59,588 nucleotides of DNA from Patescibacteria group bacterium. GTDB lineage: Bacteria > Patescibacteriota > Saccharimonadia > Saccharimonadales > CAIOMD01. Made by a program: the position numbers and the translations under genes. The notes under the pieces were generated by a model. That model searched no databases and had not been told where the DNA came from. It saw only the letters and a program-made list of their open reading frames with translations. The DNA is taken from the NCBI GenBank assembly GCA_035510605.1, contig DATKGW010000006.1:1-59588 (forward strand), given 5' to 3'. Positions 516 through 16,344 of this stretch are shown one piece after another. Each line of letters begins with the position of its first letter. Within the stretch, counting starts at the first letter, position 1.

Positions 516-590
516 TGGTCGCGGGGGCCGGACTCGAACCGGCGACCTTGTGGTTATGAGCCACACGAGCTGCCACTGCTCTACCCCGCA
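516..590 (-). tRNA. tRNA-Met(CAU), initiator-like
   Basis: Hand-folded cloverleaf: UGCGGGG/CCCCGCG acceptor, D arm GAGC..GCUC with A11:U24, anticodon loop CUCAUAA, T loop UUCGAGU, encoded CCA. It closely resembles E. coli tRNA-fMet but has U1-G72 and only two G:C pairs at the base of the anticodon stem. Confidence 0.8.
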
Positions 591-1067: not shown

Positions 1068-1166
1068 TTTGGCTACTCATCATTATAACTCACTAGTAAA
1101 TATTACCCCTGTTTTGCTATACTAGGCAACGTCGGGGGCGTAGCTCATCGGTTAGAGCAGGCGGCT

Positions 1167-1764
1167 CAAGAAGTTCATTCTAAATTATGCTGCGGATAAT
1201 GTAGTTCCTGAGGGCAATTGCAGCAGACAAGGATACATTTTTGTACCTCCTTATCTATCGATTCTTCCTTCCGATTGGATAAGGCTCGTAAATCGAGCTT
1301 AAACTCCTTTTATTCAGGGTTTCGATGGTGAAAAGCTAGCGTAGACAAATTTTTATTGTAGCCACAAATGGAACATCTTCCTACGTATTTTAGTACAACA
1401 GCACGTTTTCTTTTTAGACCTCTTGATTGTTGAGCTAAATATGATTGGAGATAGTTATTTTGACATTTTGGCGAACAATAAAGTTTCTGTTTACCTCTCA
1501 GTAGTTTCCCGCATTTTACGCAGGTTATGATATTATTCATAACCATTAGCACAACACGAATGATCTTGCAGGGCTACCTGAAAAGTAATTTTCAGGTGAT
1601 AATCTGTCAAATTCGGGGAAGCCTTAAATGGTAATCCCGAGCCAATCTCGCCTTGGCGAGCAGGTGTAGAGACTAAACGGCAGACATCCTTAAGCACAAG
1701 TCGAAGGATGAAGAGATAGTCCAGCTCACAAAGTCGAAAGATGTTGCGAAAGCAATAGTGAGAG
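1167..1764 (+). ncRNA. group I self-splicing intron (IC3-like core) in the anticodon loop
   Basis: The 5' exon ends in U1166 and the intron ends in G1764. Core blocks GUCAAAUUCGGGG (1606-1618), CCCGAGCCAA (1636-1645), GGUGUAGAGACUAAACGGCA (1663-1682) and GAUAGUC (1715-1721) match the Azoarcus/Anabaena pre-tRNA intron core as I recall it. UCUUG 1564-1568 pairs with the first five intron nt, CAAGA 1167-1171. Confidence 0.8.
1175..1552 (-). pseudogene. Zn-ribbon + HNH endonuclease gene, antisense to the intron, interrupted by an in-frame TAA
   Basis: The track ORF 1310..1552 ends ...AFHHRNPE at TAA 1310-1312. The same frame continues KEFKLDLRALSNRKEESIDKEVQKCILVCCNCPQELHY to TGA 1175-1177. It aligns with the intact paralog at 50965-51336 (DFHHDSLEKKDF...KCSVLCANCHRIVHY). 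CxNCH is changed to CNCP. Confidence 0.7.
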
Positions 1765-1902
1765 CATAACCGCTTGGTAGTTGGTTCGATTCCAACCGCC
1801 CCCACCACTTTAAGCATTGCTTAACTTAATCTACATAAAATGTAAGTTTTACTTATGCCTGTAGGTTATGTTAATAATTAACTGGTAAACCAAAATAAAA
1901 AC

Positions 1903-2856
1903 ATGGAAGACCAAACCGAAGAAAACCAACAATATGAGAACCTTCCCATACATCGAACTGAACTAAATGATCACACGGAAAACAATTTGACGGAACAAAA
2001 TCAATCGCTAAATGTAACAGAAGAGACAATCTCTTTCACTAAGCCAAAGCCAACCATACTGCACAGAAAGTTCAAGCCTACTTCTATAATCCAATTCCCA
2101 AAAAGGCCCTCGAAATTATTAATAGCAATTTTAGTTATTATCGTTTTGTTATTAGCTATATGCGCGGGTGCTACTTGCTGGTTCTGCGGTCGCAAGATGC
2201 CGACTTCCAGCTTGACCCAGAGTAACTCAAAGAGCAATAGCTCCAAAACCAACGCAGTCTCTAGTACCCCAACCCCCTTATGCAGTGTAGACTACAGCCA
2301 AGTTCCTAAAATGTCAGACTTTGCCGTTAAGGCAGATCAACTATGTGATGAAATTTATCCAAAAATATCGCAAAAACTAGGTAACGTTAATCCTCTTGAG
2401 AAAATTCAACTTGTGTTTGTAAAGTCGCAGCTAAATCCTGGTCAGACATCTGGCAACATTATTTCCCTAGACAGCAATTGGTACGCACAACATCCTGATG
2501 ACTTAGGCTCCATCGCCCATGAAATTACTCATGTTGTTCAGAGCTATCCCACAAATGTTTCCTGGATTACGGAAGGGATGGCTGATTATATCCGATATTG
2601 GGCAGGCTATCAAACCAGTTGGAGCTATCCTCATTGCGGTGCGGGTAGTCTAAGCTACACTTCGGGGTATTGGTGTGCTGCCACCTTTTTACGTTTTATA
2701 GAAAAAACATATGATCCGAATATTGTTCCAGAATTGAATAGCGCCTTAGATAATAATAACTACAATGATTCATTGTTCGTATCATATACAGGAAAAGATT
2801 TATCGCAGTTATGGGCCGAATGCATAATGCAAGACTGTGCCGGAGGCTCCCCCTAA
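1903..2856 (+). CDS. membrane-anchored HExxH metallopeptidase-like protein (basic secretory protein/BSP-like)
   Basis: One TM helix (LLIAILVIIVLLLAICAGA), a Ser/Thr linker, then SIAHEITHVVQ...WITEGMADYIRYW. Confidence 0.45.
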   Translation: MEDQTEENQQYENLPIHRTELNDHTENNLTEQNQSLNVTEETISFTKPKPTILHRKFKPTSIIQFPKRPSKLLIAILVIIVLLLAICAGATCWFCGRKMPTSSLTQSNSKSNSSKTNAVSSTPTPLCSVDYSQVPKMSDFAVKADQLCDEIYPKISQKLGNVNPLEKIQLVFVKSQLNPGQTSGNIISLDSNWYAQHPDDLGSIAHEITHVVQSYPTNVSWITEGMADYIRYWAGYQTSWSYPHCGAGSLSYTSGYWCAATFLRFIEKTYDPNIVPELNSALDNNNYNDSLFVSYTGKDLSQLWAECIMQDCAGGSP

Positions 2857-8692: not shown

Positions 8693-8769
8693 GGCGGCGT
8701 AGCTCAGTTGGTTAGAGCGTAGGACTCATAAGCCTAAGGTCACTGGTTCAATTCCAGTCGCCGCTACCA
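8693..8769 (+). tRNA. tRNA-Met(CAU), elongator-like
   Basis: GGCGGCG UA GCUC AGUUGGUUA GAGC G UAGGA CUCAUAA GCCUA AGGUC ACUGG UUCAAUU CCAGU CGCCGCU A CCA. The D and T arms resemble E. coli elongator tRNA-Met. Confidence 0.85.
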
Positions 8770-13550: not shown

Positions 13551-14441
13551 ATGGATGAGAAAAATACATTACCTCCGGGTAAGTATGTGGTGGCGGTGTC
13601 CGGTGGAGTAGATTCCGTTGTGTTGCTCGATGTATTAGCCAAACACAAGAATCTAGAGTTGATTGTGGCTCATTTTGACCATGGTATCAGAGAAGATTCG
13701 GCCAAAGATGCTGATTTTGTTAAACAATTAGCAGGCAAATACGGTTTAACTTTTGAAATGGCTCAAGGCAAATTGGGTAGCGAGGTCAGCGAGGCTGATG
13801 CTCGCGAAAAACGCTATAACTTTTTAAGACAGACAATGGAGAAATATGACGCCAGAGCCATAGTGACCGCTCACCACCAGGATGATGTGATAGAAACCAG
13901 CATTCTGAACATTTGCCGCGGTACCGGTCGGCGAGGTTTAAGCTCATTAAAAAGCCGCCATGATATTGCCAGGCCATTCTTGCACATCCCTAAATCCGAA
14001 TTAAAAAAATATGCCGAAGATAACGACTTAATTTGGCACGAAGACAGCACTAATGCCGACCCAAAATATTTGCGTAATTATGTACGTCTTAATGTTGTCC
14101 AGAAGATGAATAATGAAACACGGGCTAAATGGTTGCAAATCTTACAAAATATGGATCAAGTAAACAATAAACTGGATGCTGAAATCGAGCAGATTTTAAG
14201 GCACGGTTTGCATAAGGGGCAACTGGTTTTAAGCAGAAAATGGTTTATCATGTTGCCACATAGTATTGCCAAAGAAGTTTTAATGAGCATTTTAGATAAA
14301 CTAAATGCCCAGGATATTGATAAAAAAACTATCGAACGAATTACTGTGCAAATTAAAACTCTGCCGCATGGTAAGACTTTGCAAGCGGTCGGTGTAGACG
14401 TTTATTTAACAAAACGTTCGGCCAGATTTAAAAAACGATAG
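13551..14441 (+). CDS. tilS: tRNA(Ile)-lysidine synthase (short form)
   Basis: PP-loop VAVSGGVDSVVLLDVL, HFDHGIREDS, AHHQDDVIET. It sits in the usual position upstream of ftsH. Confidence 0.85.
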   Translation: MDEKNTLPPGKYVVAVSGGVDSVVLLDVLAKHKNLELIVAHFDHGIREDSAKDADFVKQLAGKYGLTFEMAQGKLGSEVSEADAREKRYNFLRQTMEKYDARAIVTAHHQDDVIETSILNICRGTGRRGLSSLKSRHDIARPFLHIPKSELKKYAEDNDLIWHEDSTNADPKYLRNYVRLNVVQKMNNETRAKWLQILQNMDQVNNKLDAEIEQILRHGLHKGQLVLSRKWFIMLPHSIAKEVLMSILDKLNAQDIDKKTIERITVQIKTLPHGKTLQAVGVDVYLTKRSARFKKR

Positions 14442-14475: not shown

Positions 14476-16344
14476 ATGGAGAAAAAGTTACCAAGAGGTA
14501 AAAATCAGACCACTCAGCGCAAGTGGTTCAAGAATATTGGCTTTGTTGTAATTGTCGGGCTGATTGCTGCGATATTTTTAGTCGGTTATAACCAGCCGGC
14601 TAAATTAACCGAAGTGCCATATAACCAAGTGATTAATAGTGCCAACAAAGGTGAAATATCTAACTTAAACGTCAATGGCGCGAATATTACGGTTACCAAA
14701 AAAGGTGATAGCAAAGCGAGCGAAAAAACCATTATGCAATCCGGGTCGGATTTGTATAACTCAGTCGGCGGCTTAACTAATCGCAATGTTACGGTTAGTT
14801 TTCAACCGGTTTCAACCAGCGGCGCAACTTGGACGGCTCTGGCGATAAACTTACTGCCGGTCATAATTATTACCATGGTTTTGGTTTTTATGCTGCGCTC
14901 AGCGCAGGGTCAGGGTAATCAGGCATTGGGTTTTGGCAAAAGCAGTGCCAGATTGTATGGTAATGAAAAAGAACCGGTAAAATTTGCCGATGTCGCCGGC
15001 AGTGTCGAAGTAAAACAAGATTTGGAAGAAGTTGTAGAATTTTTGAAATTTCCTAAAAAATTCCAGAATGTCGGTGCTCGGATACCAAAAGGAGTTTTAC
15101 TTATCGGACCGCCCGGTACCGGTAAAACATTATTGGCTCGGGCCGTAGCTGGTGAAGCCAATGTACCATTTTTTAGTATTTCCGGTTCGGAATTCGTAGA
15201 AATGTTTGTGGGAGTCGGTGCCAGCCGGGTGCGGGATTTATTTGCCAAAGCCAAAAAGAATGCTCCTTGCATAATTTTTATAGATGAAATTGATGCTGTC
15301 GGGCGCCGTCGTGGATCCGGTATGGGCGGCGGGCATGATGAGAGAGAACAAACACTCAACCAAATTTTGGTTGAAATGGACGGTTTCGAACAGGGCCAGA
15401 ATGTTATTGTTCTGGCGGCTACCAACAGGATGGATGTGCTCGACCCGGCGCTACTTAGGCCTGGTCGTTTTGATCGTCGGGTAAACATTAGTTTGCCGGA
15501 TCGTAAAGACCGTCTGGCTATTTTAAAGGTGCATTTTGCCAAAAAACCGCTGGACAAAGATGTAGATCTGGATGCACTGGCTGCCAAATCAGCCGGTTCC
15601 AGTGGTGCGGACCTTGCTAATATAACCAACGAAGCGGCCATTGTGGCAGCCCGGGCTAACCGAACCACAATTAGTTCAAGTGATGTGACCGAAGCTTTTG
15701 AAAAAGTAGCTATTGGCCCGGAGCGAAAAAGTAAGATTATGAGCGATAAAGAAAAGGAATTAACCGCTTATCATGAATCCGGCCATGCGGTTGTCGGCCA
15801 CGTTTTACCGGACAGCGACATGGTACATAAAGTCACCATTATCCCAAGGGGAAATACGGGTGGCGTGACCTGGTTTATTCCACCGGAAGATAAAAGCTAT
15901 CATTCGATTGTTGAATATAAAGATGTTTTGGGGCGAATGCTTGGTGGCCGTATAGCCGAAGAAATAATTTATGGCTCGGATAGAGTTACGACAGGAGCTG
16001 GTAATGATTTGCAGATGGCCGCCGAACTAGCCAGAGAAATGGTAGTAGAGCAAGGTATGGGTAAAAAACTGCGTGATCAAGTGTTCCACATAGATGAAGG
16101 AATGATGATGGAAAGGCTGGTTCATGAGCGGCAATATTCTGACGAAACAGCCAAAGTGATTGATGAAGAAGTGGAAGAATTAATAACCGAAGCCGCCAAG
16201 CGAGCCCGAATTGTAATTAGAGCCAATCGTGAACCATTGGAAAAATTAAAAGTTGCGCTGCTGGAAAAAGAAACCGTCGAAGCTAACGAGGTTGCCGAAA
16301 TATTAAAAGGTACCAAATTGCCGAAGGAAGCAACTTTATATTAA
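14476..16344 (+). CDS. ftsH: ATP-dependent zinc metalloprotease FtsH
   Basis: [28 protein letters not shown], Zn site HESGHAVV, two N-terminal TM helices. Confidence 0.97.

Follow-up and report, generated by a model that had tools for sequence, protein, structure and literature searches.

Several group I introns that interrupt bacterial tRNA genes are classical, including those in the tRNA-Ile(CAU) of Azoarcus, the tRNA-Arg of Agrobacterium, the tRNA-Leu(UAA) of cyanobacteria and plastids, and the tRNA-fMet of cyanobacteria (PMC4033280, PMC3984707, PMC1995217). The subtype label IC3, which we use for introns of the tRNA-Leu(UAA)/Azoarcus type, is taken from a title cited in PMC3984707. In addition, the description of tRNAscan-SE 2.0 lists 36 bacterial genomes with a "missing" initiator tRNA (tRNA-fMet) or tRNA-Ile2 that is interrupted by a group I intron, including the tRNA-Ile2 of Acidovorax and Burkholderia (PMC8450103). 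For the candidate phyla radiation (CPR), group I introns in the tRNAs of circularised genomes have been mentioned (PMC8172020), and group I introns with LAGLIDADG endonucleases have been described in the 16S and 23S rRNA genes (PMC11270868, PMC8172020). Here, we analyzed a contig of 59,588 nucleotides (nt) from a Patescibacteria group bacterium of the Saccharimonadales (DATKGW010000006.1, assembly GCA_035510605.1; the whole stretch is hereafter called the window). The single tRNA-Ile2(CAU) gene visible in this member of the Saccharibacteria is very probably split between U33 and C34 by a once-mobile IC3 intron, which would be spliced out before the tRNA lysidine synthetase TilS acts on the product, and whose endonuclease gene appears to be dead.

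The window intron shares with the Azoarcus tRNA-Ile(CAU) intron the tRNA species, the ribozyme subtype, blocks of the core, GNRA loops on P2 and P9, and a presumed dependence of an essential tRNA on splicing; a core pattern taken from the window also matches the 204-205-nt introns of beta-proteobacteria inserted at CAU/AA (L027, L028 and L115; a slash marks a splice site throughout). It differs from the Azoarcus type in its insertion site (U33/C34, whereas those loci are split at 36/37, after the anticodon), in its length (598 nt through an endonuclease insert in L1, against 205 nt and no open reading frame (ORF) in Azoarcus), and in a P5 without the receptor hairpin. The guide sequence is GGGCU in the window and GUG in Azoarcus.

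The tRNA-fMet intron of Synechocystis PCC 6803, which carries the gene for I-Ssp6803I (PDB 2OST), also splits the anticodon loop of a tRNA(CAU), is IC3-like and has its endonuclease gene in the P1 loop; moreover, a homologue of I-Ssp6803I is found in an intron that has the same 33/34 site and GGGCU guide as the window (L029). However, the Synechocystis host gene is an initiator tRNA and not tRNA-Ile2, I-Ssp6803I is a PD-(D/E)XK enzyme encoded on the sense strand whereas the window gene is of the HNH type and antisense, and the two intron lineages differ in signatures in P4 and J8/7. The tRNA-Leu(UAA) introns have the same IC3 core and are the majority class among the matches listed in our genome scan, but they lie in a different tRNA, at 34/35, are usually ORF-free and measure 200-260 nt. 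Finally, the CPR rRNA introns with LAGLIDADG endonucleases come from the same radiation and likewise combine a self-splicing intron and a homing endonuclease in an essential structural RNA gene, but their hosts are rRNA genes, and both the endonuclease family and the intron subtypes are others.

We found no published description of the U33/C34 site in tRNA-Ile2 or of an antisense HNH endonuclease family of tRNA introns, and I-Ssp6803I is the only tRNA-intron endonuclease that we found in the review literature. The phenomenon itself is already known, in passing also in CPR bacteria, and the insertion site and the antisense HNH gene are variant features of it. An earlier reading of the window, made from the sequence alone (the sequence-only reading), had known of no description of tRNA group I introns in a CPR-like lineage; this claim of novelty was too strong in view of PMC8172020, PMC8450103 and the many CPR and non-CPR loci recovered in our scan.

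A tRNA(CAU) gene interrupted in its anticodon loop

When joined, the two exons (Table 1) form a 76-nt cloverleaf with a GGGGGCG/CGCCCCC acceptor stem, the anticodon loop CUCAUAA and an encoded CCA, as determined by ARAGORN on the spliced sequence. The first exon terminates in ...GGCGGCU and the second begins with CAUAACC, with 598 nt between them. An Rfam scan of the whole window returned one group I intron match, at 1557-1746 on the forward strand, which covers the full RF00028 model (1-253) with 73.8 bits (E = 6.7e-17; curated gathering score of the family, 50 bits). This score is far above chance. The sequence-only reading had proposed both the canonical 76-nt tRNA, with these exon coordinates, and a group I (IC3-type) intron bounded by U1166 and G1764, and these statements are confirmed.

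Four splice registers give a 7-nt anticodon loop, and the mature tRNA sequence is identical for the first three of them. Only the register U1166/C1167...G1764/C1765 combines a U at the last exon position with a G at the end of the intron; the junctions one to three bases downstream, which fall after C, A and A, break the group I rules, and the third would also change the anticodon to CAA. Because only one junction obeys these rules, the intron is placed after U33 and before C34 of the tRNA. The terminal G (omegaG) is present in the window and also in all 18 related introns of tRNA(CAU) genes, at the junction that restores CUCAUAA.

The window sequence was recovered at 99.9-100% identity in four independent assemblies (ENA, Logan), in all of which the exons and the ribozyme are identical. 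The sole intron polymorphism is G/A at position 1288 (versus L003), inside the dead endonuclease ORF.

In its default mode, ARAGORN did not detect the split tRNA gene in the window. In intron mode it found the gene at 1134-1807 and its 598-nt intron, but the identity that it gave, tRNA-Leu(CAA), is wrong because the program forces the intron into the archaeal/eukaryotic 37/38 position. It should be noted that a 94-amino acid ORF (1533-1817, reverse strand) covers the ribozyme core and the 3' exon of the tRNA in antisense. In the identical contigs L003 and L004, this ORF is annotated by gene callers as a protein; it has no Pfam match and is almost certainly spurious.

Guide sequence and catalytic core

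The sequence GGGC(U) lies directly upstream of P2 in every related 33/34 intron. When the exon end was folded together with the 5' intron region, the minimum free energy (MFE) structures showed an identical P1 in the window and seven relatives. In L123, the exon reads GACU in place of GGCU and the guide GGGUU in place of GGGCU, which is a compensatory change. The sequence-only reading had noted that UCUUG (1564-1568) is complementary to CAAGA (1167-1171) and had assigned this pairing to P1. The pairing stands, as part of the P1 extension; as P1 proper it would leave U1166 unpaired, and the GGGCU guide found throughout the family fits better. The same reading had placed the inserted ORF in the P1 loop, and this location holds for the extended P1, although the ORF itself is a decayed HNH gene on the antisense strand. 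The insert occupies the terminal loop of the P1 extension, and ORF-free relatives have the same P1-extension architecture. Since P1 takes up tRNA positions 30-33, it would compete with the anticodon stem before splicing.

All 56 assigned pairs of the window intron, from P2 to P9b, are standard. In an alignment of 16 introns (A2), 94.2% of the pair cells are standard, versus 31-43% in controls with the 3' partners displaced by 1-3 columns, and 37 of the 56 pairs show changes on both sides; the observed pairing and covariation values were matched by none of 500 shuffles. When 1557-1764 is folded on its own, the MFE structure (z = -3.4) contains P2, P3, P4, P5, P6a and P8. Each of the core blocks quoted by the sequence-only reading could be located: GUCAAAUUCGGGG (1607-1619), CCCGAGCCAA (1636-1645), GGUGUAGAGACUAAACGGCA (1664-1683) and UAGUC (1717-1721). 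Between the window and its closest relative, L143, the differences include two compensatory double changes (G-C to A-U in P2; C-G to U-A in P9). According to these comparisons, the predicted ribozyme is complete, with P1, P2 to P9 (including the P3/P7 pseudoknot) and omegaG, and its core is supported by covariation outside P7, P6 and most of P4. As a side observation, P8 is 4 nt longer in the window than in L143, where the alignment has two 2-nt gaps.

Identity of the split tRNA

We compared the spliced tRNA with 5,426 complete E. coli genomes. The best match is an annotated tRNA-Ile gene (82-84% identity over nt 8-76), present at a median of two places per genome, which has the anticodon CAT and has the block GGTTAGAGCAGGCG.CTCATAA.CGCTTGGT in common with the split tRNA. 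The split tRNA also shares the G27.U43 wobble with E. coli tRNA-Ile2, whereas the elongator-like tRNA at 8693 has U27-A43. ARAGORN detected no second Ile2-like tRNA within the window. Since the two other CAU tRNAs of the window match tRNA-Met (Table 1) and TilS is encoded, the split gene is best read, by similarity and elimination, as the third CAU species, tRNA-Ile2. The resemblance to E. coli tRNA-Ile2, the presence of tilS in the window and a CPR-like host had all been proposed from the sequence alone and are borne out here. Concerning the host, the best named relatives of FtsH (14476-16344) belong to Candidatus Saccharibacteria/Saccharimonadales (81-83% identity), and on this evidence the CPR assignment stands.

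Table 1. Predicted features of the split tRNA gene, its intron and related genes in the window.
Feature	Position	Strand	Remarks
Initiator-like tRNA-Met(CAU)	516..590	-	ARAGORN; initiator-type A11:U24; best E. coli match tRNA-Met, median 4 places per genome
tRNA-Ile2(CAU), 5' exon	1134..1166	+	tRNA positions 1-33; last base is the universal U33; GGGGGCGUAGCUCAUCGGUUAGAGCAGGCGGCU
Group I (IC3-type) intron	1167..1764	+	598 nt; begins CAAGAAG, finishes GAGAG; omegaG = 1764
P1 extension, 5' strand	1168..1180	+	pairs with 1558-1567 (AAG/CUU + UCAUUC/GAAUGA); MFE fold
HNH homing endonuclease pseudogene	1175..1552	-	antisense to the tRNA; likely original start ATG 1540-1538
Internal guide sequence GGGCU	1571..1575	+	pairs with exon G1163-U1166 and C1167 to form P1, including the U1166.G1572 wobble
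P2 hairpin	1576..1597	+	9 bp, GUAA loop; 9/9 pairs vary on both sides among 16 introns; recovered by MFE
Catalytic core	1603..1764	+	P3 to P9, helices below
P3	1603-08/1679-84	+	core helix
P4	1612-18/1635-41	+	core helix
P5	1621-23/1630-32	+	core helix
P6	1642-43/1663-64	+	core helix
P6a	1647-51/1656-60	+	core helix
P7	1671-75/1717-21	+	core helix; UAGUC strand
P8	1685-91/1704-10	+	core helix
P9	1725-29/1758-62	+	core helix
P9a	1733-35/1740-42	+	GAAA loop
P9b	1744-47/1752-55	+	GAAA loop
tRNA-Ile2(CAU), 3' exon	1765..1807	+	first base C34 (lysidine target); encoded CCA at the end; CAUAACCGCUUGGUAGUUGGUUCGAUUCCAACCGCCCCCACCA
Elongator-like tRNA-Met(CAU)	8693..8769	+	ARAGORN; best E. coli matches are annotated tRNA-Met
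tilS, tRNA lysidine(34) synthetase	13551..14441	+	TIGR02432, 179.5 bits (cut-off 93.6); context, outside the element

A decayed HNH endonuclease gene on the antisense strand

Read through its internal stop, the ORF in the P1 loop matches PHROG 2255 (HNH endonuclease; E = 1.2e-18, residues 4-123), and PHROGs 3106 and 35854 match it as well. Pfam and NCBIfam scans of the antisense ORF of the window gave no HNH match; PF01844 is recorded for some of its homologues, and an intact homologue had no significant match among the PDB sequences. The reading frame carries two lesions, an in-frame TAA at 1310-1312 (codon 81) and a Pro in place of a conserved His (NCPQELH, versus NCHxELH in relatives). In an alignment with 11 intact homologues, the window copy alone has the stop and alone lacks this His. 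Judged by these lesions, the endonuclease gene is dead in the window copy.

A large protein collection contains at least 142 homologues, for the most part from CPR bacteria, most of them 121-129 amino acids long and the best 76-79% identical; the few named ones belong to Saccharibacteria, Moraniibacteriota and "ACD" aquifer bacteria. Reading frames are intact elsewhere, for example in P0001 (L143), L110 and L076. We looked up the genomic context of eight homologues (P0009 is without DNA). An HNH gene lies antisense in a 33/34 tRNA-Ile2 intron, beside an RF00028 match, in L143, L144/L145, L146/L147 and L150, and in two loci of the genome scan (L110, L076) it is likewise antisense in a 33/34 intron; it is degenerate in L094 (frameshifted) and L105 (remnant only). 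Two distant homologues are free-standing. That of L148 (1459-1836, forward strand) lies upstream of a tRNA-Ile2 gene with an Azoarcus-type 36/37 intron, and that of L149 (1501-1950, forward strand) extends into the end of a tRNA(CAU) gene that is not interrupted (1948-2021, reverse strand). This distribution suggests that the HNH family tracks tRNA(CAU) loci, whether inside an intron or not.

The ORF-free 33/34 introns L079, L084, L020, L123 and L105 have the motif (A/G)UCUA(A/U)(A/G)U near their 5' end, which corresponds to the antisense of the C-terminal codons and stop of the HNH gene (..HNLE-stop). The motif suggests that these introns were derived by deletion from ORF-containing ancestors.

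With regard to expression of the antisense gene, the opposite strand of the invariant ribozyme segment CUGUCAAAUU (1603-1612) reads TTGACA, a perfect -35 hexamer upstream of the ORF. No acceptable -10 element follows it in the window, and this hexamer may be a coincidence.

Distribution of related introns

To place the intron among its relatives, we searched one genome of each GTDB species with a 34-base core pattern taken from the window, and the splice junctions of all matched loci were re-derived by the U(-1)/omegaG rule. The pattern matched at least 120 bacterial species (L006-L125), and both tRNA-Leu(UAA) 34/35 introns and Azoarcus-type CAU 36/37 introns are among its targets. Among the matches listed, the majority are tRNA-Leu(UAA) 34/35 introns, in Alphaproteobacteria, Acidobacteriota, Burkholderiales, Bacteroidota and others; the remaining hosts include tRNA-Arg(UCU) at 34/35 (L069, L073), tRNA-Lys(UUU) (L117), tRNA-Thr(GGU) at 36/37 (L009, L058), and tRNA-Arg(CCU) at 36/37 (L059 and, in Paceibacteria, L107). 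Judged by these matches, cyanobacteria and plastids are far from being the only lineages in which IC3 tRNA introns are common.

The same list holds 18 tRNA(CAU) genes split at 33/34, in the context ..GGCU/...G/CAUAACC. Eleven of them are tRNA-Ile2-like and were found in Patescibacteria (L094, L110), Gracilibacteria (L100), Chloroflexota (L020, L032, L076, L084, L089, L105), Peptococcaceae (L079) and Heliomicrobium (L123). The other seven are initiator-like, from Saccharibacteria (L042), Kaiserbacteria (L049), Patescibacteria (L119), Planctomycetia (L108) and three further loci (L029, L077, L083). From the Ile2-hosted to the fMet-hosted 33/34 introns, a G-C pair in P4 becomes U-A or U.G, and J8/7 changes from AAG(G/A)GAUAGUC to AAGG(U/C)AUAGUC (alignment A2). 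Since these signatures hold regardless of the host phylum, they imply two intron lineages, each specific for its host tRNA and each spread across phyla.

One of the initiator-like loci, L029 (uncultured bacterium CAYJSI010000011.1), has a 639-nt intron with a GGGCU guide, and its P1-loop ORF, on the sense strand, encodes an I-Ssp6803I homologue (PDB 2OST, E = 6e-47). This ORF occupies the same structural site as the HNH gene of the window, in the opposite orientation.

Intron-containing and intron-less alleles of the locus

L143 is syntenic with the window over the initiator tRNA, DivIC, the split tRNA, an RRM protein and a Pyr_redox protein, with 73% nucleotide identity. Its endonuclease is intact and 76% identical to the window copy at the protein level. 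In addition, the exact spliced 49-nt junction sequence is present uninterrupted in 17 metagenome contigs, whose exons are 97-100% identical to those of the window (100% in L142). A DivIC homologue (40-46% amino acid identity) adjoins the tRNA in 13 of the 17 contigs, as it does in the window. Since the exons match and DivIC adjoins the tRNA, we consider these 13 contigs to represent the same locus without the intron. Taken together, the locus data fit a homing cycle of invasion, fixation, endonuclease decay and ribozyme retention.

In L137, partial copies lie on both sides of the intron-less tRNA-Ile2 gene, its 5' half being repeated upstream and its 3' part downstream (about 1301-1335, 1453-1529 and 1549-1582). 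These partial copies may be scars of integration or excision.

Proposed pathway of splicing, modification and homing

Taking into account the anatomy of the intron, we propose that it is spliced in vivo as follows. The precursor would be transcribed as one RNA, in which the guide GGGCU would pair with the exon end GGCU and the first intron base to form P1, with the U1166.G1572 wobble at the splice site. A free, exogenous guanosine bound in P7 would attack after U1166 (U33); omegaG1764 would then enter the site, and the freed 3'-OH of U33 would attack before C1765 (C34). Ligation of the exons would restore the anticodon loop and yield the mature tRNA. TilS would convert C34 to lysidine, which would make the tRNA the isoleucine decoder of AUA, and isoleucyl-tRNA synthetase (IleRS) would charge the lysidine-modified tRNA. 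TilS could act only after splicing, because the anticodon loop exists only then. The split gene is presumably essential, and AUA decoding would be reliant on splicing.

As for the origin of the intron, the intact HNH enzymes of the relatives presumably cut the anticodon-loop DNA of intron-less tRNA-Ile2 genes, and repair would copy the intron in; the intron of the window was probably mobile in this way originally. In the window, the endonuclease gene would have decayed while selection preserved the ribozyme, on which the tRNA depends.

Alternative explanations

Several observations weigh against a tRNA-Ile2 gene that depends on splicing. The visible genome is 59.6 kb only, and an uninterrupted second tRNA-Ile2 gene could lie elsewhere. 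A promoter and terminator scan of 1000-1950 on both strands found no sigma-70-like promoter for either the tRNA or the antisense ORF (nor any terminator). P10 is at most 1-2 bp. P5 has only 3 bp, as the 13-nt P5a hairpin of L143 is deleted (window 1624-1629), which could weaken tertiary docking; an equally short P5 is found in L108, a 205-nt tRNA-fMet intron. Finally, P7, P6 and most of P4 are uninformative by covariation because they are invariant in A2.

Four other explanations of the locus were weighed. The dead endonuclease gene, the loss of P5a relative to L143 and the small inspectable part of the genome would all fit a decaying relic, whose intron no longer splices and whose host reads AUA with another tRNA-Ile2 or with a UAU tRNA encoded outside the window. 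We consider this very unlikely, since the 56 core pairs are intact, the P2 and P9 differences from L143 are compensatory, the exons match the intron-less gene of L142 at 100% identity, the window has no other Ile2-like tRNA, and tilS is retained; furthermore, CPR genomes usually have single-copy tRNA genes. It is also highly improbable that the split gene encodes an elongator tRNA-Met, in which case lysidine and AUA decoding would not be involved. A CAU anticodon by itself fits either tRNA, and tRNA-Met is the name that ARAGORN gives to the spliced product, but the best E. coli match is a tRNA-Ile with CAT and a common sequence block, an initiator-like and an elongator-like tRNA-Met are both present in the window besides the split gene, and G27.U43 is as in E. 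coli tRNA-Ile2 and not as in the tRNA at 8693.

A reading that accepts a genuine group I intron, but one whose splicing in vivo needs a host protein or chaperone and is not autonomous, we regard as unlikely, although less easily set aside. Dependence on protein cofactors in vivo is frequent among group I introns, the truncated P5 is without the usual tetraloop-receptor helix, and P10 is reduced to a minimum. On the other hand, the core is compact, its standard pairs are complete, three GNRA loops are kept and a maturase-like ORF is absent; efficient self-splicing in vitro is known for small IC3 tRNA introns, for instance that of Azoarcus (PMC13168695). As the window comes from a metagenome assembly, an assembly artefact or chimera could in principle have put an intron-like fragment into the tRNA, yet the recovery of the sequence in four independent assemblies and the same architecture in dozens of unrelated genomes leave this explanation next to no probability. 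We retain the reading of a spliced tRNA-Ile2 gene with a once-mobile intron.

Implications

More tentatively, and with somewhat less than even confidence, the window intron may be a member of a lineage of mobile tRNA introns, so far undescribed and centred on the CPR, that occupy U33/C34 of tRNA-Ile2 and initiator tRNAs, carry a zinc-ribbon/HNH gene of about 121-129 codons always antisense in the P1 loop, and have passed repeatedly between phyla. The proposed horizontal spread involves Patescibacteria, Chloroflexota, Bacillota and Planctomycetota. If so, I-Ssp6803I would be joined by only one further endonuclease family with a known role in the mobility of bacterial tRNA introns. For a bacterial group I intron, the antisense orientation of the homing endonuclease gene would also be unusual, and the gene would require its own promoter and reading through the ribozyme in antisense. 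The HNH family could also yield new site-specific enzymes that recognise tRNA anticodon-loop DNA.

The split gene has consequences for annotation as well, as an essential tRNA is missed by ARAGORN in default mode or called tRNA-Leu(CAA) in intron mode, and gene callers emit a spurious 94-amino acid ORF on the strand opposite the ribozyme. Because tools miss or mislabel the split gene, CPR genomes may seem to be without tRNA-Ile2, and inferences on completeness and codon usage would err accordingly.

The locus offers a natural series that comprises alleles lacking the intron, an intron whose endonuclease gene is intact (L143), one whose endonuclease gene is dead (the window) and introns without an ORF. 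For a bacterium with a reduced genome, the arrangement described here would mean that the decoding of AUA rests on a ribozyme acting ahead of TilS.

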